Shown here piece after piece: positions 1 to 50,462 of a stretch of DNA of 64,000 bases (its first letter is position 1; each line of letters begins with the position of its first letter). The translations under genes were made by a program, and so were the position numbers. The DNA comes from an uncultured Gammaproteobacteria bacterium. GTDB lineage: Bacteria > Patescibacteriota > Microgenomatia > CAZTEW01. Below the pieces are notes generated by a model. The model saw only the letters and a list, made by a program, of their open reading frames with translations. It did no database searches and had not been told where the DNA came from. Where the stretch lies: the NCBI GenBank assembly GCA_964612215.1, contig CAZTEW010000001.1, forward strand, positions 12,432 to 76,431. Reading direction: 5' to 3'.

Positions 1-1243
1 GGGTGTTGGGTTGGGAATAAATTGCCAGAAAAGCCGCCAGCCAGGCTAAAGTACCGATGCTGACCGTTGCCTGGACAATCTTTTTCCACGGCAGCCGGAG
101 TTGTTCCCAAAACCAAGCGCTCCAAAGACAAAAAAGCGGGTAAAGGGGGAGAAGATAGCGCATGAATTTGACGCTAAATCTGCCGACGACCAAAAAGTAA
201 GCGAGGAAAAAAACCACCAGAATTATTTCTTTGGCCTCGATATCTTCTTCGCCCTTGATTCTCACCCGCCGATAAAGACTCAAGAAATACCAGGCGGTGG
301 CCAAGAAACTCATCGTTCCCAAGGTAATGCCCATGCCCCAAAGATATAAATTTTTGAGGTGATAAAGATAAGGGACAGTATCCACATATTGGAGAGTAAA
401 GGGGAAAGTGAAAGCATCTTTGGTCATTTGGTGTTGAGCCTGGATTTGCTGCCAAAAAGTCGGGAAATCAAGCAGGGCATAGGGTTCGGTTAAAGCAAAA
501 ACAGTGATTGTCGTGAGAAAAACAATCAGGCCGAAGGCAAGTAAAGGCTTAATTATTCTCCAGGTGGCGGTTTTTTTCCTGAAAATAACTAAACTGATTT
601 TCTGCCACCAGCGAGCCGTTTGTTGGCGCCAATATTTGAGAAAAATTAAAACCAGATCAAAAGCAAAAGCAGCGCCGATAGCGCTAACCAAAACTGAGGC
701 GCTGATTTTAGTGGCTAAAGCCAAGCCAAAGCTGATGCCCAGCCAGACAGCTCGCCGCCGGCTTTGTTTTTCATAAAAAAGAATCAATTGGTAAAGAGTC
801 AGGAAGATAAAAAAATTAAGTGGAACATCAACTGCGTAAAAGTGAGAAAGCTGGACCGGCAAGGCGCAAATCGCATAGAGAAAAGCCGCCTTTAACCCGA
901 TTTTTTCGGAAAAAACCCTTTGGCCGATTTTAAAAATCAAGAGCAGGGTTGCCAGGTCAAAAATGACTGATAAAATCCGGCCGACCCAATGCAGGTGGCT
1001 GTAGTGAGCCCACTGAGGACCGAAAATCAGACTGACCAACCAACCGGCAAGTTTTAAAAGATAAAGAGGCAAACTGCCATAAGCAAAAAACTTAGGATTG
1101 AGGTTGCCGGGACGCAAATTCTCCGCCACCATGATAATCATTCTTTCGTCAGGGTGGAGGTGATAACCCTGGTCCCAGTTAAGGCCATAGAGGCGGAGAA
1201 TGGCGCCAAATGCCAGAATCATGAATAATGAATTACGAATCAT
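1..1243 (-). CDS. GT-C fold membrane glycosyltransferase (GT39 PMT/ArnT-like), 3' end cut by window edge
   Basis: Own minus-strand translation from ATG at 1243 reads MIRNSLFMILAFGAILRLYGLNWDQGYHLHPDERMII..YGSLPLYLLK..LALATKISA with no stop down to position 1. Absent from the ORF track because no in-window stop. Paralog of the 1248..2774 product (shared WDQGY-HPDE, YGSL, LALATKI motifs). Polytopic. Confidence 0.55.
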   Translation of the reverse strand, partial: MIRNSLFMILAFGAILRLYGLNWDQGYHLHPDERMIIMVAENLRPGNLNPKFFAYGSLPLYLLKLAGWLVSLIFGPQWAHYSHLHWVGRILSVIFDLATLLLIFKIGQRVFSEKIGLKAAFLYAICALPVQLSHFYAVDVPLNFFIFLTLYQLILFYEKQSRRRAVWLGISFGLALATKISASVLVSAIGAAFAFDLVLIFLKYWRQQTARWWQKISLVIFRKKTATWRIIKPLLAFGLIVFLTTITVFALTEPYALLDFPTFWQQIQAQHQMTKDAFTFPFTLQYVDTVPYLYHLKNLYLWGMGITLGTMSFLATAWYFLSLYRRVRIKGEEDIEAKEIILVVFFLAYFLVVGRFSVKFMRYLLPLYPLFCLWSAWFWEQLRLPWKKIVQATVSIGTLAWLAAFLAIYSQPNT

Positions 1244-1247
1244 GAAT

Positions 1248-2774
1248 TTAGATTTCGAGAAGACTTTCATAATCACTTTCCGTGAAAAATTGGGTTTTTT
1301 GGTAAATCCTAATGACCGGGTGGTCAAAAACAGACCAGGTTTCTTCAGCCATTTCATCAGGGATTAAAGGATAAGAGCTAAGCTCTTTGATTTTAAGAAA
1401 ACCTAATTGATTAGCGAAGAGCAAATCATAAAAGCGGCTGGTCAGAGGAAACTGGTTTGGCAAGCGCTGGTGGTTGCTGAACATTCTCCGGCTTTGGACG
1501 ATAAAATAGTCAGCTTCAGCTAAGAGACCAGGCAGTTCTTGCCGGAGGCTGGCTTGCTCGTCAAGATGATAAAAATCAAAGCCGACTTTTTTCAAACTGC
1601 CGGTTAGCGGTACTTCCAGCATGTTGCCGGATTCGGTCAGAACGGTTGCTGCCGCCGGCAGATTGGCATTCAGCCAGTCAGTCGCGGTGATTCTGACATC
1701 AGGCCGGAGATAGATAGAGAAAAAGATCAAAGTCCAGAGAAAGTTAGTAAAAAGTAAAAAGTAAAAAGTAAAAAGTAAAAATTTATTTTTTATTTTTTTA
1801 TATAAATAAGCGGTGAAGATGGCGAAAAAGGGAAAGCTGGGAGCAATAAAGCGGGTCCATTTGGCAAAAAGAAAAGCATGGGGTAGAAAAAGGAGCAGAA
1901 AAGCAGCGACAACCAAACGCCAATTCGGATTTCTGATGGCCAGAAAAAAACCGATGGTTCCCAAAAGCAAAACCGCTGGTCCGAGAGCGTAAGGGAGAAT
2001 TTTCTGAAACTGGAAAAGAACAGGCAGGGTGTTAATGAACTGGCGAGTGTAAAAAACTACTGGTTGGCCGCGGCCGACACCAGTTTCATAATTTAAAGAA
2101 TGGGAGAAAGCAGAGTAATCCAGCAGGCTATAAGGGAAAGCGCAAAAGAAAACAAAACCGGCAAGGAAAAGAGGAACGATCACTTTTTCGATTAAAAGAA
2201 AAGGTTTCGTTAAAACGAAAAATAACAAAATTGGTAGCCAAAACAAAACAGTAATTTTGGTAGCCAGAGCCAGACCAAAGCTGGCTGCGGCAAGATAAAG
2301 AAATTTGAGTTTTTTTGTTTTTTGGTACTGCATACCCAAATAAAGAAATAAAAATAGCCAAAAGGTCAAGTTAGATTCTGGGGTGGCAAAATGAGCTTGC
2401 TGGATTAGGCCAGGGAGAGTGGCGCTGAGCGCGGCCGCGAGAAGCGCCTGTTTGGGAAAGAGCCGGCGGGCAATTAAATAAACAAGAATAATCGTTAAAG
2501 TGGAAAAAAGAGCGGCGTAAAAACGGCCAATAATAATAGCGGGTAGCGTGTGGCCGATGGCGGCCAGCAGCAGCTTGGTGAAATAAATGAGATAAACAGT
2601 TAATGAGCCGTAAGAGAAAAGCTCAGGGTTCATCTGGCGGGGAAAAGAGAGTCTTTCAACTGCCGCGGCAAGATGGTATTCGTCCGGATGGAAGAAGTAA
2701 CCCTGACCCCAGTCAAGCTTAAAAAACCTGAAAAAGCCGCTAATCAGAATAATCAAGAGAAGTTTAAACGACAT
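1248..2774 (-). CDS. GT-C fold membrane glycosyltransferase (GT39 PMT/ArnT-like)
   Basis: 508 aa, more than 10 predicted TM helices. N-terminal loop motif DWGQGYFFHPDE, then YGSLTVYLIYF. Tandem paralog of the upstream truncated gene. Confidence 0.6.
   Translation of the reverse strand: MSFKLLLIILISGFFRFFKLDWGQGYFFHPDEYHLAAAVERLSFPRQMNPELFSYGSLTVYLIYFTKLLLAAIGHTLPAIIIGRFYAALFSTLTIILVYLIARRLFPKQALLAAALSATLPGLIQQAHFATPESNLTFWLFLFLYLGMQYQKTKKLKFLYLAAASFGLALATKITVLFWLPILLFFVLTKPFLLIEKVIVPLFLAGFVFFCAFPYSLLDYSAFSHSLNYETGVGRGQPVVFYTRQFINTLPVLFQFQKILPYALGPAVLLLGTIGFFLAIRNPNWRLVVAAFLLLFLPHAFLFAKWTRFIAPSFPFFAIFTAYLYKKIKNKFLLFTFYFLLFTNFLWTLIFFSIYLRPDVRITATDWLNANLPAAATVLTESGNMLEVPLTGSLKKVGFDFYHLDEQASLRQELPGLLAEADYFIVQSRRMFSNHQRLPNQFPLTSRFYDLLFANQLGFLKIKELSSYPLIPDEMAEETWSVFDHPVIRIYQKTQFFTESDYESLLEI
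1747..1781. repeat. Heptanucleotide tandem repeat (gtaaaaa)x5 inside GT-C gene
   Basis: Direct read: gt dinucleotide recurs at 1747, 1754, 1761, 1768, 1775. Encodes FLLFTFYFLLFT on the minus strand. Confidence 0.85.
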
Positions 2775-3669
2775 AGATAATGAGGATAGTCATTAATCCC
2801 CAGCCCATGACGCTTAAAGAAAGAGGAATGTCACTGGTCAGGAGCTTCTCCGGCCTTTCGCCGGCCTGTTTCTCATAAATCAGCTGGGCGTAACGCATAA
2901 TGCCGAAAATGACAAAAGGAATCGTGGCGGCCATCAACCACTTTCGGCCCAGAGCCTTAGGGAAGTTAATCACTAAAAATTGAGTTAAGGGCTCGCTGAA
3001 TTCAGGCGGTTCAGTGAAAAAGGTAAAAAGAGCATAAGAGACCAAAGCGGCGTTGGCAAAAGTTGAAGTGTAAAAATCAAGCAGTTGGCGGCGGTAGGCT
3101 AACAGCGCCGGTCTGGTTTTGGCGCCTTCCAAAACCAGTTCTGATCGCCGCTTGCCGGAGGCAATAAAAAGAGCCAGAAAAATAGCGGTGAGCATAAGCC
3201 AAATGGGAACATGAAAGCCGGTCAAGGCCTCGCCGACAAAAATGCGGATGATAAAAGAACTGGCAATGATTAAGATATCAACGACGGCAAATTTTTTTAA
3301 GAAAGAAGAATAAAGAAGGTGCAGGCTGATAAAAAGAAGGCCGAGGAGAAAAACGCTGATGCCTAAAAGCAAGCTGATAATCAAGCCGCTGATCGCCAGA
3401 AAAACAGCTAGCTGAATAGCAGTCTGAGGCTTTATTTTGCCGCTCGCCAGCGGCCGGTGTTTTTTTTGAGGATGGCGTTGGTCATAAGGCAGATCGATTA
3501 AGTCATTAAAAAGATAAGAAGCAGAAGAAAGTAGGCAAAAGACGCCGAACCCGCAAAGACAGCGGAGGAAAATTTCCGGGTTAAGCAGCTGGCCGGTAAA
3601 AATAATGGCGGTAAAAACCAGCGCGTTCTTAATCCACTGACCCGGTCTCAGAGAAGTGATTATAAACAT
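2764..3669 (-). CDS. UbiA-family prenyltransferase, decaprenyl-phosphate phosphoribosyltransferase-like
   Basis: 301 aa polytopic protein. N-terminal RPGQWIKNALVF and NDLIDLPYDQRHP (NDxxDxxxD) motifs, typical of the DPPR synthase branch of UbiA. Confidence 0.6.
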   Translation of the reverse strand: MFIITSLRPGQWIKNALVFTAIIFTGQLLNPEIFLRCLCGFGVFCLLSSASYLFNDLIDLPYDQRHPQKKHRPLASGKIKPQTAIQLAVFLAISGLIISLLLGISVFLLGLLFISLHLLYSSFLKKFAVVDILIIASSFIIRIFVGEALTGFHVPIWLMLTAIFLALFIASGKRRSELVLEGAKTRPALLAYRRQLLDFYTSTFANAALVSYALFTFFTEPPEFSEPLTQFLVINFPKALGRKWLMAATIPFVIFGIMRYAQLIYEKQAGERPEKLLTSDIPLSLSVMGWGLMTILIIYVV

Positions 3670-3734
3670 TATAAAGATTATAAGAGCTTGCTCGCTTCGC
3701 TGTGCTTCCTCTTGTAATTCTCCTTACAGTCAAA

Positions 3735-4958
3735 TTATAACTCGCTTGCGACCTTTTTGCCAATTTCAATCGCATAATTAACGCCTCGATCCCAAGGATA
3801 AATTAAGGACTGGTTAGCCAGAGAGACATTTTTCAGCGGGGTTTTCATCCCTGGCATGATTTTTGAATAATTAATGGGTATGACCGGTTGAGCATAAAGA
3901 TTAGCGAACAGCGAACAGCGAACAGCGAACAGCCTGGGGTTGATTTTTTTCAAATAGGGGAGAAACTCTTTGAGAACTTCATCTTTTTTCATCTTAAAGT
4001 AGCGGTGGTTTTGCGGATAATAGCCGCCAACATAAAGAAGACGGCAGTGATGATAGTACTGCCGATTGATGAAGTTGGTGTGTTCGACTACGGCCACAAA
4101 AGGAAAACCAGGTTCGTTAATATTGAGCCAGTAAGTATTGTCAGTTAAGAACTTTTCTCTAAGAGTTAAAACTAAAACTACGGCGCCGACAAATTTTAAA
4201 GATTGGAGACGGCGACGGTAATCAACTGGCAAATGAGGGGCGATTTTTAGAAATTCCGGCGTCGGCACCGTGACGATGATAGCATCAAAACCCTTTAACT
4301 CACCGAGTTTTTTTATGGTTGTACTTGTCAAAATTTGGCCACCGCTGGCTTTGATTTCCTCAGCCAGGCGGTCAATTAAAACCTGAAAACCGCCTTTTAA
4401 GTAGCCTAATTGTGAACTTCTTTTTTTGATTCTGGCCCAAAACCAAGACATGGCGATTTCATCGGCAAAAGAGCCGAACTTGCTTTGCAGCAGCGGCTGC
4501 CAAAGGGTTTGATAGACGGCTTGGCCGTAATATTTGCGCAGCCATTTTTCCGCCGTGACTTCTTCAAAAGACAGCGCTTTGCTGGCTTTAAGCCAAGCCG
4601 TCGCTAAACCCGCGCGGATTTTTTCCGGCCAGGAAAGGTGTGGAAAAGTCATTAGCGCTAATGGCGAATCAAAGGCAGAAATCCGGTTACTTCGGAAAAT
4701 AGAAGTTTTCGGCTGGTAATAGTGAAGCTGGTTTTGAAGATTAAGTTCGCTGATTAAATTTTGGACATGATGATCAGAAGTGAAAAGGTGGTGATAGAAA
4801 CGTTCTAATGACCATTGCCAGTTTTTTTCTCGAAACCCAGCCGCCAGGCCGCCTAAATAGCCTTCTTTTTCAAAAACAGAAACAGCCTGTCCCTTTTTGG
4901 CCAATTCGTAAGCTGCGGTTAGGCCGGTAATGCCAGCGCCAATAACAGCAATCTTCAT
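3735..4958 (-). CDS. FAD/NAD(P)-binding oxidoreductase (amine-oxidase/protoporphyrinogen-oxidase/UDP-galactopyranose-mutase-like fold)
   Basis: 407 aa. N-terminal Rossmann motif MKIAVIGAGITGLTAAYELAKKGQAVSVFEKEGYLGG. HHLFTSD resembles the UGM PHIFHT signature. Exact family unresolved. Confidence 0.55.
   Translation of the reverse strand: MKIAVIGAGITGLTAAYELAKKGQAVSVFEKEGYLGGLAAGFREKNWQWSLERFYHHLFTSDHHVQNLISELNLQNQLHYYQPKTSIFRSNRISAFDSPLALMTFPHLSWPEKIRAGLATAWLKASKALSFEEVTAEKWLRKYYGQAVYQTLWQPLLQSKFGSFADEIAMSWFWARIKKRSSQLGYLKGGFQVLIDRLAEEIKASGGQILTSTTIKKLGELKGFDAIIVTVPTPEFLKIAPHLPVDYRRRLQSLKFVGAVVLVLTLREKFLTDNTYWLNINEPGFPFVAVVEHTNFINRQYYHHCRLLYVGGYYPQNHRYFKMKKDEVLKEFLPYLKKINPRLFAVRCSLFANLYAQPVIPINYSKIMPGMKTPLKNVSLANQSLIYPWDRGVNYAIEIGKKVASEL
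3903..3930. repeat. Heptanucleotide tandem repeat (agcgaac)x4 inside oxidoreductase gene
   Basis: Direct read at 3903-3930. Encodes AVRCSLFANLY on the minus strand. Confidence 0.85.
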
Positions 4959-4970
4959 AATTAATAATTA

Positions 4971-5447
4971 TCACAGAGCAAAGAGCAATCCGAGGATGAC
5001 GAGTGCGCCGCCAGCCAGAGCGGTGAGCCAGGTGGGTAGAGTGATGCCAGCTTCAGGCAGAGGAATCGGCGTCGGTGTTGGTAAGGCGTCTGGAGGAGCA
5101 GGCGGCGGCGTTGGCGTTGAAGTTGGTCCTGGGGTGGGCGTGGAAGTTGGTCCGGGCGTGCCGGTAGGCGTCGGTGTGCCGGTTGGCGTCGGTGTGCCGG
5201 TTGGCGTCGGTGTGGAGACGCCAGCGACATTAAAGCTTAAAGTGCAGGCGGCAACCGGATCCCTTTCGGCGGGTGGTAGTTGGGTGGGTGTGGCGGTCGG
5301 TTCCAGGGCCGGCGCCGGCTGGGGCGCGGTCGGAGCGACCGGCTGCTGGCGGAGCTGGTAGAGCCGCAAGGCAGTTATCACCGCAATCACCGCCAAGATG
5401 ACGGTCGCGCCTAAAATAAAAATTGTCGTCCGGTTTTTCTTTGGCAT
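4971..5447 (-). CDS. Small Pro/Thr-rich surface protein with N-terminal signal-anchor and C-terminal LPEAG-hydrophobic tail
   Basis: 158 aa. N-terminal TM. TPTPTGTPTPTG tandem repeats (tandem at the DNA level, 5100-5220). C-terminus LPEAGITLPTWLTALAGGALVILGLLFAL. Confidence 0.5.
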   Translation of the reverse strand: MPKKNRTTIFILGATVILAVIAVITALRLYQLRQQPVAPTAPQPAPALEPTATPTQLPPAERDPVAACTLSFNVAGVSTPTPTGTPTPTGTPTPTGTPGPTSTPTPGPTSTPTPPPAPPDALPTPTPIPLPEAGITLPTWLTALAGGALVILGLLFAL

Positions 5448-5451
5448 ATTT

Positions 5452-6843
5452 TTATCTCCAGCCTAGCGAGGGATTTTTTACCATCGCCTCGACCGTATAA
5501 CTACCTGAACTGGGAACTTCATACTGGACATAGAACTTGCCTGATTTTTTGCCGGTCGGTATTTGCCAGCTGCCGGCGTTAAACCGGAAGCGAGCGTCAG
5601 TAATGCCCTGAGGTTCTTCGCAACCGCCAGCGACCGCAAAATAAATTGTCTCGCCGACGCTGATCGTATTGAGATTGGTAATCGGCTGCCAATCCTCATT
5701 AAAAGCCGCCAGGCTGGTACAGCTTAAACTGTATTCTTGACCAGCTTCGCACCCCTCAACACAACCATGATCGCTGTTATGGCAGATGTCAAATCTAATG
5801 TCAGACTGCCAGGCACAATATTGAGGCGGACCATTGGCACTATTAGTATTGCCTCTGGTCCAGACTTCGTCTGGAGTGAGAGTCACTGCTTCGGAAAAAT
5901 CGCCACCGCTACAGAAGCAACTATCATTGTTTTGATGATCACACCAACGAGAAAACCAAACAGCCGTGCCGCTAATTGGCTGGTCAGTATTATTGATGAT
6001 CTTGACGCCGCCTTTATTTGCCTGACATTCTAAAGTGCCGCTGCCGACGCAAGTGCCGCCTTGACATTTGCCGGAAGCGCAATCTGAATCATAAACACAA
6101 CCAGCGTGACTGCCGCAGCTTTTACCACTAGCGCAATTGCCATTATCGACACTGCATGATTCCCAGTGAGCACAATCATTAGGGCCAGAGCAACAACCAG
6201 GTTTGCCAGGTTCTGGTTCAGGTTTACAGACGCTGCAGTTCGGATCATCGGTTTTCATGCATTGCTGGCCTTCGGCACAATCCTTGGTGCCGCTGCAGCA
6301 TTGCGTTCCCGGCGGGCTGGTGGGGCCAGGTGTTAAATCACCAGAACAGGGAGAGTTAGCTGGGTCAGGATTGACTGCTCCGGCGGAACAAGTGTACTGA
6401 TGGGTATCAGCATCACACCAAGTATCTGGCAAATCAATATAATTACAAGCTTGGTCACAGCCCCAGCGGCCGTCGGCATCGCAAGTGCTCCAGCCAGGTT
6501 CATGACCATTACATTTATGTTGGGGATTGTCAGGGTAATTACAGATATTATCGGCCATTTTGCGGACTTCCTGGCGCTGTTTGACTAGGGTCAAAGCCAC
6601 CGGCAGGGAAATGAGAATCAAAGCGATACCGGCAATTGCGGCGGCGACCCGGCCTTTTTTCTTGTTTGCCGCCGGCTTAATTTCCGGAGTTTCTTGGATG
6701 TTCCCCGGCTCTGGCTGTTTGTCAGTTGGCGGTGGCGGTGGCGGTGGCGGTGGTAGCTCAGCTGGCGGCACTGGCTGGCTGGCGGGAGGATTAATACCGG
6801 AAAGAGTTGGCGTTGCTGGCGGATTGGTCGGTTGGTCAGGCAT
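5452..6843 (-). CDS. Cys-rich ectodomain protein with polyproline N-terminal tail and single TM (type II topology)
   Basis: 463 aa. N-terminal about 60 aa Pro-rich including PPPPPPPPP. Then TM, then LVKQRQEVRKMA motif. Extracellular region has more than 50 Cys in CxxGxC-like spacing. 1-nt overlap with the upstream gene. Confidence 0.5.
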   Translation of the reverse strand: MPDQPTNPPATPTLSGINPPASQPVPPAELPPPPPPPPPTDKQPEPGNIQETPEIKPAANKKKGRVAAAIAGIALILISLPVALTLVKQRQEVRKMADNICNYPDNPQHKCNGHEPGWSTCDADGRWGCDQACNYIDLPDTWCDADTHQYTCSAGAVNPDPANSPCSGDLTPGPTSPPGTQCCSGTKDCAEGQQCMKTDDPNCSVCKPEPEPGKPGCCSGPNDCAHWESCSVDNGNCASGKSCGSHAGCVYDSDCASGKCQGGTCVGSGTLECQANKGGVKIINNTDQPISGTAVWFSRWCDHQNNDSCFCSGGDFSEAVTLTPDEVWTRGNTNSANGPPQYCAWQSDIRFDICHNSDHGCVEGCEAGQEYSLSCTSLAAFNEDWQPITNLNTISVGETIYFAVAGGCEEPQGITDARFRFNAGSWQIPTGKKSGKFYVQYEVPSSGSYTVEAMVKNPSLGWR

Positions 6844-28277: not shown

Positions 28278-29276
28278 ATGAGAATTTTGGGCATTGAGAC
28301 GAGTTGTGATGAGACGGCGGCGGCCGTGGTTGAAAACGGGACAAAAGTGCTATCCAGCGTGGTTGCTTCTTCAGTGGCTTTACACCAAAAAACCGGCGGC
28401 ATTATTCCGGAAACCGCGGCTCGGGAGCAGGTTAAATATATTATTCCGGTTATAGAGGAGAGTTTAAAAGTATCAAGGTGTAAAAGTTTAAAAGAGATTG
28501 ATGCCGTGGCAGTGACCGTCGGGCCGGGTTTGATCGGTAGTCTTTTGGTCGGCGTGGAAACCGCTCGCGCCCTGGCCTATGTTTGGCAAAAACCAATTGT
28601 AGCGATTAATCATCTTCAGGCGCATCTCTACGCGAACTTTCTTAATTCAAAATTCAATCCGCCAGCTGGCGGACAAAATTCTGAATTATTCCCGGCGATT
28701 GGCTTGGTGGTGAGCGGCGGGCATACGGACTTGGTCCTGATGAAAGATCACGGGAAAATAAAATGGCTGGGCGGCACCCGTGATGATGCCGCCGGTGAGT
28801 GTTTTGATAAATGCAGTCGCTTGCTTGGTCTTAGCTATCCTGGTGGACCAGCGATCGAGGCGATCGCCTCTAAATTAAAAATTAAAAATGAAAAATTAAA
28901 AATTCTATTGCCGCGGCCAATGATGAATCAAAAGAATTATGACTTTTCTTTTGCCGGCTTAAAGACGGCTGTTTTTCATCAGGTGAGCAAGTTTACTGCG
29001 GAGCAATTAGCCAATGAGATTCAAGAGGCGATTGTGGAAGTGTTAGTGACGAAAACGATTAGGGCGGCTAAAGAATATCACACCAGGTCAATTTTACTTG
29101 GCGGCGGCGTGGCCGCGAATTCTTTGCTTCGCCAAAAGTTCAAAGTTCTACCGCCAAAAAATCTTTGTTCTGATAATGGTGCGGTGATTGCCGCCAGCGC
29201 TTTTTTTAATTACCGGCCAGTTAGTTGGCGGAAGATTAAAGCCAACCCTTCTCTTGGGATCGATGAAATTGTATAA
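28278..29276 (+). CDS. tsaD: tRNA N6-adenosine threonylcarbamoyltransferase TsaD
   Basis: MRILGIETSCDETAAAVVENG.., HLQAHLYAN, GGVAANSLLR are Kae1/TsaD signatures. Confidence 0.9.
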   Translation: MRILGIETSCDETAAAVVENGTKVLSSVVASSVALHQKTGGIIPETAAREQVKYIIPVIEESLKVSRCKSLKEIDAVAVTVGPGLIGSLLVGVETARALAYVWQKPIVAINHLQAHLYANFLNSKFNPPAGGQNSELFPAIGLVVSGGHTDLVLMKDHGKIKWLGGTRDDAAGECFDKCSRLLGLSYPGGPAIEAIASKLKIKNEKLKILLPRPMMNQKNYDFSFAGLKTAVFHQVSKFTAEQLANEIQEAIVEVLVTKTIRAAKEYHTRSILLGGGVAANSLLRQKFKVLPPKNLCSDNGAVIAASAFFNYRPVSWRKIKANPSLGIDEIV

Positions 29277-41894: not shown

Positions 41895-43331
41895 ATGGCC
41901 AAGAAATTTTACATTACGACCGCTATTCCTTACGTCAATGCCTCACCCCATTTAGGTCATGCCTTGGAATTTGTTCAGGTCGATGCTGCTGCCAGGTATC
42001 ATCGCTTAGTCGGGGAGGTCTTTTTTGCTACCGGCTCTGATGAGAATGCCTTGAAAAATGTTCAAGCAGCCCAGAAAAGGAACATGACCACTCAACAGTT
42101 GTGCGACCAGGTGACTCAAGAATTTAAGAAGTTTGCCAGACGGCTTAACATTCAATATGATGTCTGGCGCCGAGGGTCTGATAAAAAAAGACATTGGCCA
42201 GGGGTGCATCGACTTTGGCAGCTTTGTCAAAAATCCGGCGATATCTATAAGAAAAGTTACCAGGGGCTTTATTGTGTCGGTTGTGAAGCTTTTTTGACTC
42301 CTAAAGACCTACAGAATGGTCAATGCCCGTACCACTTAAAGAAGCCAGAATTGATTGAAGAAATAAATTATTTCTTTCGCCTGTCCAAATACGAAGACAA
42401 GATAAAACATTTAATCGAGTCGAACGAACTGAAAGTTTTTCCTAAAAAAAGAAAAAATGAAATTTTAGCTTTCATTAATCAGGGGTTGAAAGATTTTAGC
42501 GTTTCTAGGTCAACTCAAAGAACGCATGGTTGGGGCATCCCTGTTCCTGGTGATGATTCCCAAATGATTTATGTTTGGTATGACGCCTTAACTATTTATA
42601 TGACGGCGGTGGGTTGGGGTTATGACCAAAAGCGCTGGAAGGGGTTCTGGCCAGCCGACCTTCATGTTATCGGCAAGGATATCGTCCGTTTTCATGCCGT
42701 TTATTGGCCGGCAATGCTTTTAAGCGCCGGGCTAGCTTTACCCAAAGCAATTTTAGTGCACGGTTTCATCACCTCCGGCGGCCAAAAAATGGCCAAGAGT
42801 TTAGGTAATGTTGTTGATCCTCAGGAAATTGCCAAAAAATACGGCGCTGATGCCCTGAGATATTATCTTTTAAAAGAAATTCCTACTCAAGATGACGGTG
42901 ATTTCACTGTTAAGCATTTTGAGGAAATTTATAATGCTGATCTGGCTAATGGGCTAGGGAATTTAGTGCAGCGGGTGGCAAAGCTAGCCGAAGATTATAA
43001 AATTTATAACAATTATAAACTTTATAAAAACTATAAAATTTATAATAAATTTTTTAGTGAATATCGCTTTAACGACTGTTTGGTTTGGTTGTGGGAAAAA
43101 ATTGCCAGTGTCGATAAATACCTTGATCAAACTCAGCCGTGGAATAAGAAAGGGAAAGAACGAGTCAAGATATTAGTGAAACCAGTGAAGGAGATTCGCG
43201 AGATTGCTTTTCTTTTACAGCCATTTTTGCCGGAAACAGCCGTGGCCATTGAGAAAATATTCAGCGCCGATAAAATAAAAGCACCGGGAAAACCACTTTT
43301 TCCGCGCCTGCCGGTCGGCAGGCAGGGGTGA
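41895..43331 (+). CDS. metG: Methionine--tRNA ligase
   Basis: 478 aa. HIGH-type PYVNASPHLGHALE. KMSKS as KMAKSLGN. Confidence 0.9.
   Translation: MAKKFYITTAIPYVNASPHLGHALEFVQVDAAARYHRLVGEVFFATGSDENALKNVQAAQKRNMTTQQLCDQVTQEFKKFARRLNIQYDVWRRGSDKKRHWPGVHRLWQLCQKSGDIYKKSYQGLYCVGCEAFLTPKDLQNGQCPYHLKKPELIEEINYFFRLSKYEDKIKHLIESNELKVFPKKRKNEILAFINQGLKDFSVSRSTQRTHGWGIPVPGDDSQMIYVWYDALTIYMTAVGWGYDQKRWKGFWPADLHVIGKDIVRFHAVYWPAMLLSAGLALPKAILVHGFITSGGQKMAKSLGNVVDPQEIAKKYGADALRYYLLKEIPTQDDGDFTVKHFEEIYNADLANGLGNLVQRVAKLAEDYKIYNNYKLYKNYKIYNKFFSEYRFNDCLVWLWEKIASVDKYLDQTQPWNKKGKERVKILVKPVKEIREIAFLLQPFLPETAVAIEKIFSADKIKAPGKPLFPRLPVGRQG
42993..43048. repeat. 9-nt tandem repeat (tataaaNNt x about 6) encoding YKIYNNYKLYKNYKIYNK inside metG
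   Basis: Direct read: gattataaaatttataacaattataaactttataaaaactataaaatttataataaa. Confidence 0.7.
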
Positions 43332-49711: not shown

Positions 49712-49802
49712 GACCCTTAATTTATATCACAAAACTGGCTTTCTGGCAAGCTGAGACAGGTTTGTTTTCAAGCAAGATTTATGATAAAGTAAGGTTTACT
49801 CA

Positions 49803-49873
49803 GACCGCGTACCCAAGAGGTTAGGGAGTTGTCTGCAAAACAACTAACGCCGGTTCGAATCCGGCCGCGGTCT
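49803..49873 (+). tRNA. tRNA-Cys (GCA)
   Basis: Hand-folded. Acceptor GACCGCG/CGCGGTC. Anticodon stem gttgt/acaac with loop ctGCAaa. T-arm gccgg-ttcgaat-ccggc. Discriminator T. CCA not encoded. Confidence 0.8.
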
Positions 49874-49893
49874 CAAAGAAACAAGAGTTAAGG

Positions 49894-49917
49894 GTTTAAA
49901 AGTTTAAGAGTTTAAGA
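49894..49917. repeat. 8-nt tandem repeat gtttaaRa x3 (left flank of cassette)
   Basis: gtttaaaa gtttaaga gtttaaga, directly after the tRNA. Confidence 0.8.
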
Positions 49918-50345
49918 GTATAATTTTTTGTTTAAGTATTTTTTACGCAGCATCGCTTTGAATTCTTCGGCTGAATCTTGAGTTTCTTTTTTCCATTTTA
50001 AACCTTTATACTTTGACACCTTGACACTCTCAATAAATTTATAAATTATTCCTGAAGTTTGCCTGGCCAAATTAAAGGCTTTTTCAAATCCTTGCTTGTT
50101 AATAAAGTTTTGGTCCAGAGCGACATAGAGCTGGGCTCTGACTTCGCCGCAAGAAGCCTTGGCGATATAGAGAAAATAAAGCAGGTCGTCTTTTGTTCCC
50201 CGCTCAAAGCCTTCAGCGATATTGGATAAGACAGAGACGGCGGCGCGCCGGATCTGGTCTTTCAGAGAAAAGTCGGAAAAGCTTTAGTCCGGGCTTTTTG
50301 CCAGCAATAAAGATCTTCGAAGGTTTTTACTTTTAACTCGGGCAT
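49912..50345 (-). pseudogene. Four-helix-bundle protein (23S rRNA-intervening-sequence-protein family), frameshifted and N-terminally degenerate
   Basis: Own translation. MPELKVKTFEDLYCWQKARTKAFPTFL then a stop. A different frame continues FSDFSLKDQIRRAAVSVLSNIAEGFERGTKDDLLYFLYIAKASCGEVRAQLYVALDQ... This matches the WQKA..FP..SQ.RRAA.S..NIAEG family pattern but with a missing segment and a frame change. Not in the ORF track. Confidence 0.55.
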
Positions 50346-50373
50346 TAACTTAATTTAAACATAAAGACTGTTG

Positions 50374-50413
50374 CTTTAAAAGTTTAAAAGTTTAAAAGTT
50401 TAAAGGTTTAAGA
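50374..50413. repeat. 8-nt tandem repeat (c/g)tttaaRR x5 (right flank of cassette)
   Basis: ctttaaaa gtttaaaa gtttaaaa gtttaaag gtttaaga. Confidence 0.8.
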
Positions 50414-50462
50414 GGCGAGCCCGCCGCCATCAACTTGACTGCCTTTCCACTGTTTCTGCAAA

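Follow-up and report, generated by a model that had tools for sequence, protein, structure and literature searches.

Bacterial simple sequence repeats (SSRs) are usually pictured either as long, length-variable contingency tracts or as intergenic repeats. In Neisseria meningitidis, the protein-glycosylation glycosyltransferase gene pglE is phase-varied by a heptanucleotide repeat within its coding sequence, and both ON and OFF states occur among carriage isolates (PMC7157529). The heptamers of Haemophilus influenzae include (TGAAAGA)13–38 in the hmw1A/hmw2A promoter, (AACAACC)1–13 and, inside hmw1A, (AATTTTG)14 (PMC2651432). Heptameric SSRs are over-represented in many bacteria according to Mrazek 2007 as cited in PMC4692102, where the excess is ascribed to a polymerase active-site footprint that favours slippage by 7 nt. 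Here we describe two perfect heptanucleotide arrays from an uncultured Microgenomates bacterium of the candidate phyla radiation (CPR), found in a 64,000-nt stretch of contig CAZTEW010000001.1 (positions 12,432 to 76,431; hereafter the window, whose own numbering is used throughout). One array lies in the gene for a GT-C glycosyltransferase and the other in that for a nearby flavoprotein, and a sequence-only reading of the window had proposed both as slipped-strand on/off switches of surface glycosylation. Both belong to a clade-wide Microgenomates class of coding arrays, ~28–36 nt or 4–5 units long, which recur at set positions, the two window sites included, in GT-C glycosyltransferases, in DUF2298 proteins and in the partner flavoprotein.

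Array 1 (positions 1746–1781, (AGTAAAA)5.1) and array 2 (positions 3903–3933, (AGCGAAC)4.4) are both perfect by Tandem Repeats Finder (TRF) and by an exact scan; these are the arrays of the sequence-only reading (1747–1781 and 3903–3930), the second extending 3 nt further than it had stated. On the coding strand of their minus-strand genes they read (TTTTTAC)5.1, with sequence KFLLFTFYFLLFTNF and encoded peptide FLLFTFYFLLFT, and (GTTCGCT)4.4, with sequence RLFAVRCSLFAN and encoded peptide LFAVRCSLFA. They lie 65% and 85% of the way along their open reading frames (ORFs), respectively. In AlphaFold2 (AF2) models, the array 1 peptide makes up the N-terminal half of helix 331–356, which is the last transmembrane helix of the GT-C protein and directly precedes its C-terminal α/β domain, and the array 2 peptide forms a β-strand or hairpin (strand 345–358; predicted local distance difference test (pLDDT) ~92) directly followed by a conserved AQP motif. 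The exact scan found just four perfect tandem arrays in the window that reach 20 nt or more, and no heptamer array of at least four copies arose in 900 Markov simulations (300 each at orders 1, 3 and 5), ruling out chance or base composition as their source. Gaining or losing one unit in silico truncates the GT-C protein to 345 or 346 amino acids and the flavoprotein to 354 or 368 amino acids, bearing out the frameshift foreseen in the sequence-only reading; alignment columns show that these truncations remove invariant C-terminal residues from both proteins. Changes of ±3 units keep both reading frames.

The two host genes are essentially what they had been called from the sequence. The array 1 gene (1248..2774, minus strand, 508 amino acids) matches Pfam PF13231 at 42.9 bits (threshold 26.1) and PF02366 at 33.1 bits, its residues H29-P30-D31-E32-Y33, an acidic motif in the first extracytoplasmic loop, are invariant in the alignment, and its AF2 model, built on a 33-homologue alignment, reaches a pLDDT of 88.8 with multiple transmembrane segments and a C-terminal α/β domain; a homologue search returned 988 sequences, mostly from Microgenomates. 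By profile, acidic motif and polytopic membrane domain, its product is a predicted GT-C fold glycosyltransferase of the PMT_2/GT39-like type. The array 2 gene (3735..4958, minus strand, 407 amino acids) matches Pfam PF01593 (Amino_oxidase) at 106 bits and NCBIfam PRK07233 at 422 bits and has an N-terminal GxGxxG motif in which G7, G9 and G12 are invariant. Its AF2 model (38-homologue alignment, pLDDT 92.2) has 5mog and 2ivd as best folds in the Protein Data Bank, with a Foldseek template-modelling score of 0.83 to 5mog; profile, motif and modelled fold together assign the product to the amine-oxidase/phytoene-desaturase/PPO superfamily of FAD-dependent oxidoreductases.

The arrays keep their place in relatives and change their unit. 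All of the nearest sequences derive from Microgenomates-type Patescibacteria; when the window proteins were looked up for exact matches, no record was returned, and a scan of genome contigs gave no relative above 51% identity. At 99.9% identity, the independent ENA contig L001 likewise shows five units at array 1. In L002, whose proteins are 74–77% identical and whose gene order is kept, neither array site carries an indel, and the GT-C site holds another heptamer array in the same register, ATTCTAT TGGTCAT TGGCCAT TGGTCAT TGGTCAT (unit TGGTCAT, four copies). Among GT-C orthologues at 54–65% identity, this site is occupied by perfect TTGCTAT ×4.7 (L083) and perfect GGGTTAC ×3.4 (L089); other orthologues in this range have a degenerate TAGTTAT array (L084), TTTCTAG/TTTCTAT (L164 and L165) or a decaying array of TTTTTAC, the unit of the window (L163). 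Where a unit of L164 or L165 would place TAG in frame, it has TAT instead, which shows homogenization opposed by selection for an open frame. The fixed position, the homogeneous, lineage-specific units and the conserved length of the GT-C site together indicate concerted evolution of an old array.

The flavoprotein site behaves likewise. Orthologues at 40–76% identity carry perfect TTTATCA ×4.7 or the units ACTCATC, CTATTCA, CAAATTT, ATTCTCA, AACTTTG and AATACTA, and in most of them the encoded peptides are 7-periodic and hairpin-like. Across 51 non-redundant orthologues, mean lag-7 identity at this site is 0.525, versus 0.26 at control positions, and lags 5, 6, 8, 9 and 10 are at baseline. 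The sequence-only reading had named as telling against it orthologues whose DNA encodes an unchanged peptide without being repetitive. This is clearly not what we see: orthologues have other heptamer arrays at both sites.

A census of 165 loci (1.45 Mb) of related Microgenomates, counting arrays of at least four copies and at least 86% lag identity, yielded 102 arrays of period 7, versus 14, 7, 11, 1, 1, 2, 0 and 1 of periods 4, 5, 6, 8, 9, 10, 11 and 12. After overlapping segments were merged and the three arrays of the window added, 98 arrays remained, 93 of them inside long ORFs, with more than 40 distinct units. Their density is 1.40 arrays per 10 kb in GT-C genes (63 arrays, 274 genes) and 0.90 in flavoprotein genes, compared with 0.19 in all other genes, a GT-C/other rate ratio of 7.2 (p = 7 × 10−15); the flavoprotein enrichment is 4.6-fold, both figures being taken across ~150 related loci, so the suspicion that two arrays in one putative glycan operon exceed chance was well founded. 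Orthologues of the UbiA-family gene between the two array genes hold none in 62 kb, where 8.7 would be expected at the GT-C rate (P = 2 × 10−4). UbiA is polytopic too, which rules out the T-richness of membrane-protein genes as the cause. The hosts among the other genes are mainly DUF2298 proteins, which we take to be GT-C-like membrane proteins, together with miaA and tsaD. The essential housekeeping gene tsaD (ORF 28278..29276 of the window; Pfam TsaD 270 bits) contains a degenerate AAATTAA ×4.7 array on the plus strand at 28872..28904, detected by lag-7 scan; being of the same repeat class, it provides an internal control. In miaA, encoding isopentenyl pyrophosphate (IPP) transferase, arrays of TTTTGAA (L123:3478-3517), AATTTTC-type (L127:1904-1932) and CTTCCAT (L129:3461-3498) units from three lineages share one insertion loop after the DIGTGK motif, and site-specific heptamer arrays thus reach beyond glycosylation genes.

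Within the GT-C profile, arrays concentrate at columns 80–82, 209–219, 306–312, 354–366 and 500–502, hot spots that are common to both paralogue types. Array 1 maps to column 363, and relatives have 19 arrays in that hot spot. The hot spot at columns 500–502 has 18 arrays; their units share a constant TTGG core, read as L, W and G according to frame, and the arrays encode a hairpin-like E-I-G-N-W-K-L-E-I within a conserved x-L-x-I-G-x-W-x-L-x-I. This column-501 hairpin is absent from the window lineage. Lengths are tightly limited: perfect period-7 arrays number 344 with 2 copies, 23 with 3, 30 with 4, 5 with 5 and none with 6 or more, and array 1 of the window is at the maximum for perfect arrays, 36 nt. 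Beyond that limit, L089 has a degenerate TTCTCAN array of ~10 units (~70 nt) near FTQSIFSFLTSHFSFLKSHFPLLASHFS in the column-80 hot spot. In a separate observation, locus L083 carries one unit, CTATTTG, at three sites (5026-5062, 5583-5650 and 6741-6781), in the last transmembrane segment of its first GT-C protein, the N terminus of its second and the last transmembrane segment of the second, so that the tandem paralogues are identical over 33 nt or more at matching positions; the identity suggests either conversion between arrays or a site at which paralogues could recombine and shuffle domains.

If the arrays were switches in regular use, some should be found out of frame or with a unit more or less. 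In comparisons made on assembled contigs, none of ~93 coding arrays in relatives was out of frame, nor was any of the 47 in unbiased flanking genes. The corresponding 95% upper bounds on an OFF-majority state are 3% and 6%, and the unbiased set therefore implies that fewer than ~6% of populations have an OFF majority. A screen of hidden Markov model coverage found no split gene among ~270 GT-C genes, the sole apparent case, L041, being a scaffold gap of Ns, and the column-501 arrays are all followed, in frame, by an invariant EETWSVFDHP or ADESFTVYDHP motif. Several protein clusters at 90% identity showed no ±1-unit difference among their members, and a flank-anchored comparison of all loci for copy-number polymorphism gave six pairs, all identical and possibly from the same samples.

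A search with the N-terminal 345 amino acids of the GT-C protein returned few short proteins, and no slippage-type truncation was found among the 120 best homologues, of which one short allele was inspected. In this allele (P0349/L169, L169:2950-3119, Ga0452210_484105), the GT-C gene is cut off just upstream of the array site, and in the contig it is followed by its own next ~150 nt in reverse complement (from LEVPLTGS back to FFSIY), with the junction at a 15-nt inverted repeat, TTTATTAAAGGAACC. Its arrangement points to either an intragenic inversion or an assembly fold-back, not slippage; the contig ends before the second junction. Elsewhere, a 5508-nt contig (P0157 cluster) has a flavoprotein orthologue whose gene call is split into fragments of 208 and 94 amino acids (P0283 and P0284). 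The first fragment ends after AAKIKEGSG, where the sister allele P0279 has an extra KI (AAKIKIKEGSG); the break is not at the heptamer site, and the split may be a pseudogene or an assembly gap.

The on/off switching of surface glycosylation that the sequence-only reading had put forward thus finds no evidence here. In the copy-number comparison across related strains that it had suggested, L001, the one near-identical contig, has the same five units at array 1, and members of the 90% clusters show no ±1-unit difference. Two features of contingency loci are present, a non-triplet repeat inside an ORF and a one-unit change predicted in silico to abolish the product; two were not seen, OFF alleles in natural genomes and a tract long enough for high-frequency slippage, with only 5.1 and 4.4 units.

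Change at the array sites does occur, and it is in frame. Two GT-C alleles that are 99.2% identical (L165:542-2113 and L166:161-1804) differ by two in-frame insertions. One, inside the heptamer array, is a 27-nt GC-rich non-repeat, CATTCCAAGGGAATCCTGCTAAGCGGGC, with an ATTCC/GGAAT inverted repeat; the other, of 45 nt, is flanked by 9-nt direct repeats, CTTTGCTTA. Inserts of this kind may represent a small mobile element whose insertion preserves the reading frame. Comparable GC-rich inserts are seen at the flavoprotein array site of P0198 and P0321 and in the tail of P0338. Two flavoprotein genes (L167:1187-2410 and L168:3001-4221) are ~99% identical except for a ~100-nt patch that starts exactly at the array, where CTATACG ×4 is replaced by perfect CATGTTA ×4.7, a gain of 9 nt, and the next ~60 nt are ~85% identical. 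The CATGTTA allele also occurs in lineages that are 67–73% identical overall, and the patch looks like a short recombination tract that imported a foreign array allele. Three different alleles occupy the flavoprotein array site within one 90% cluster, and at the column-80 hot spot L089 is exactly 7 amino acids, or 3 units, longer than P0020.

Between the two array genes, and itself without an array, lies a UbiA-family polyprenyl-phosphate phosphoribosyltransferase-like gene (2764..3669, minus strand; Pfam UbiA 92 bits), which scores 193 and 187 bits, slightly below the cut-offs, against the NCBIfam decaprenyl-phosphate phosphoribosyltransferase models (NF008978, 193.5 against a cut-off of 207). 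On the other side of the array 1 gene, a further GT-C (PMT_2) paralogue follows in tandem and runs off the edge of the window (1..1243, minus strand; Pfam PMT_2 52 bits), an arrangement that recurs in L002, L163, L164, L165 and L166. A degenerate heptamer array at 1216..1247 (minus strand; ATGATTC GTAATTC ATTATTC ATGATTC; TRF period 7, 4.6 copies, 80%) covers the start codon and first 8 codons of this paralogue, and L083 has a CTATTYG array at the equivalent N terminus. Beside the flavoprotein gene, a minus-strand ORF (4971..5447) with a weak Rv2743c-family match contains 18- and 24-nt tandem repeats at 5107-5214 (GTGCCGGTTGGCGTCGGT ×3.2), in frame and Pro/Thr-rich on the coding strand. Farther away, a 750-nt intergenic gap between two minus-strand ORFs (49712-50462) holds the sole period-8 arrays of the window, at 49883-49923 (AAGAGTTT ×5.2) and 50375-50411 (TTTAAAAG ×4.6), and an AT-rich 9/18-nt tandem repeat, TTATAAAAT ×5.7, lies at 42994-43051.

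We hold it somewhat better than an even bet that the arrays are slippage-maintained coding repeats kept in frame by purifying selection, and at best latent OFF switches. We infer that slippage or conversion among units upholds the 7-nt periodicity by concerted evolution, which would give each lineage its own homogenized unit at a shared position, and that purifying selection eliminates all frameshifting copy-number variants, which would leave only in-frame states: fixed length, changes of ±3 units, in-frame insertions and whole-allele replacement by recombination. The 7-residue-periodic peptides would sit in elements that tolerate change, a transmembrane helix or a β-hairpin. Slips of ±1 unit presumably happen at some low rate and would produce null alleles, making the arrays latent hot spots of OFF mutation, and the data show no sign of OFF variants reaching appreciable frequency. 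The polymerase-footprint hypothesis (PMC4692102) is compatible with the data as well. Several observations weigh against this reading. The footprint idea explains only weakly why period 7 exceeds period 8 by ~50-fold. It is not easy to explain by neutral tolerance that arrays are enriched 7-fold in GT-C genes and missing from UbiA, an equally hydrophobic protein, nor does such tolerance readily explain hot spots common to anciently diverged paralogues, the conserved TTGG core at column 501 or the non-monotonic lengths (23, 30, 5 and 0 arrays with 3, 4, 5 and at least 6 copies), and allele replacement between 99%-identical strains could mean diversifying selection rather than mere tolerance. 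The GT-C enrichment, the shared hot spots, the bump at 4–5 copies with its hard cap and the exchange of alleles thus keep alive an adaptive reading, in which the arrays serve low-frequency switching or act as diversification cassettes, although we regard it as unlikely.

One rival reading strikes us as doubtful, namely that the arrays are true contingency loci: second-order selection would keep them because slipped-strand mispairing can turn surface glycosylation ON and OFF reversibly, for instance to hedge bets against being recognized by phages or hosts, with OFF variants persisting as minority subpopulations hidden by consensus assemblies. The truncated products of ±1-unit changes would almost certainly be null; the arrays are enriched in GT-C, DUF2298 and partner-enzyme genes, the functional class in which phase variation is classically seen; an operon can hold several arrays; perfect arrays at the same sites across 54–77% protein identity imply continuing homogenization; and there is precedent in the heptanucleotide control of pglE in Neisseria (PMC7157529) and in several H. 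influenzae loci (PMC2651432). The reading would, however, lead one to expect the OFF alleles that are common in known phase-variable species (PMC2651432), and we find none of ~93 arrays out of frame, no ±1-unit difference in any close-strain comparison and, in the one truncated homologue checked, an inversion or chimera. The arrays also have only 4–5 units with a hard cap at 36 nt, far below the 6–38 strain-variable units of proven H. influenzae loci (PMC2651432), do not lie near the 5′ ends of their ORFs and are present in tsaD and miaA, genes that it would be harmful to switch off. We give a similarly limited credence to the broader proposal that Microgenomates keep position-fixed, ~35-nt heptanucleotide arrays in GT-C glycosylation genes as evolvability devices, whether low-frequency frameshift switches or cassettes whose alleles are rapidly exchanged and re-homogenized, and we are no more confident that a process of a new kind specifically regenerates the 7-nt periodicity. 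Less probable again is selection on the 7-nt or 7-residue periodicity itself, be it on the protein, as symmetric β-hairpins such as KLEI-GNW-KLEI or as heptad packing of transmembrane helices, on a nucleic-acid binding or pausing signal, or on paralogue arrays as recombination substrates for domain shuffling. Array peptides do fall in ordered, high-pLDDT elements of the AF2 models, the TTGG core does lie within a conserved hairpin, flavoprotein-site peptides are hairpin-like in most orthologues, and the CTATTTG unit of L083 does recur at three sites, two of them equivalent in tandem paralogues. Selection on the protein, however, cannot require identity at synonymous positions or across the three frames of a unit, the freedom with which units differ between lineages leaves no common nucleic-acid motif, the window lineage does without the column-501 hairpin, and no recombinant paralogues were observed. 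That the arrays are low-complexity sequence arisen by chance, or an artefact of assembly or sequencing, is hardly credible: the sequence is T-rich and encodes hydrophobic residues, and short-read assemblers can mishandle repeats, but the simulations gave no such array, 36 nt is far below read length, and array 1 is identical in the independent assembly L001, with the class present across many projects and assemblers. Programmed −1 ribosomal frameshifting was also rejected, because the window unit resembles a U-rich slippery run but the orthologous TGGTCAT, TTGCTAT and GGGTTAC contain no slippery motif, as was a diversity-generating retroelement target, because the variation is periodic and by whole units, not by adenine-specific substitution.

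CPR bacteria live as episymbionts, and the glycans on their cell surface probably have a part in attachment to the host and in recognition by phages. To our knowledge, nothing is known of how they vary their surfaces, and we found no paper linking heptanucleotide repeats to the CPR. A lineage-wide class of coding heptamers that is specific to gene family and site departs from the standard picture of bacterial SSRs. Arrays that switch would give this major, uncultured radiation its first phase-variation system, and as evolvability devices they would be its first contingency-locus-like system, different in kind from switches based on long, length-variable SSRs. Were they not to switch, they would offer a clean natural case of non-triplet repeats frozen in frame by selection and still evolving in concert, and would bear on the parts that slippage, recombination and selection play in shaping repeats within coding sequence.

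With pglE, a glycosyltransferase gene with a heptanucleotide repeat in its coding sequence is already known, and the Microgenomates arrays resemble it in having a 7-nt unit inside a glycosyltransferase ORF concerned with surface structures, in the frameshift that follows a one-unit change and in the presence of repeats in several genes of one glycosylation module. They differ from pglE in a copy number fixed at 4–5, in the lack of any OFF allele in ~93 arrays and in units that are lineage-specific at a conserved site. With the H. influenzae heptamers, whose origin is slipped-strand mispairing, they share a tie to genes for surface proteins; those tracts are long and strain-variable, lie mostly in promoters and include frameshifted alleles, whereas the Microgenomates arrays are short, frame-locked and intragenic. 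An excess of period 7 with lineage-specific units, reported by Mrazek 2007 as cited in PMC4692102, also marks the cyanobacterial STRR and the Xanthomonas/Nostoc GGGNATC families, for which the account in PMC4692102 proposes that polymerase slippage favours 7-nt units. Those families, including GGGAATC, are overwhelmingly intergenic and length-variable and use one or a few units genome-wide; the Microgenomates arrays, in contrast, are coding (93 of 98), in frame and site-specific within protein families, and use more than 40 units. What is new is the pattern, conserved in position, variable in unit, capped in length and always in frame, which is unlike both classical contingency tracts and intergenic heptamer families.

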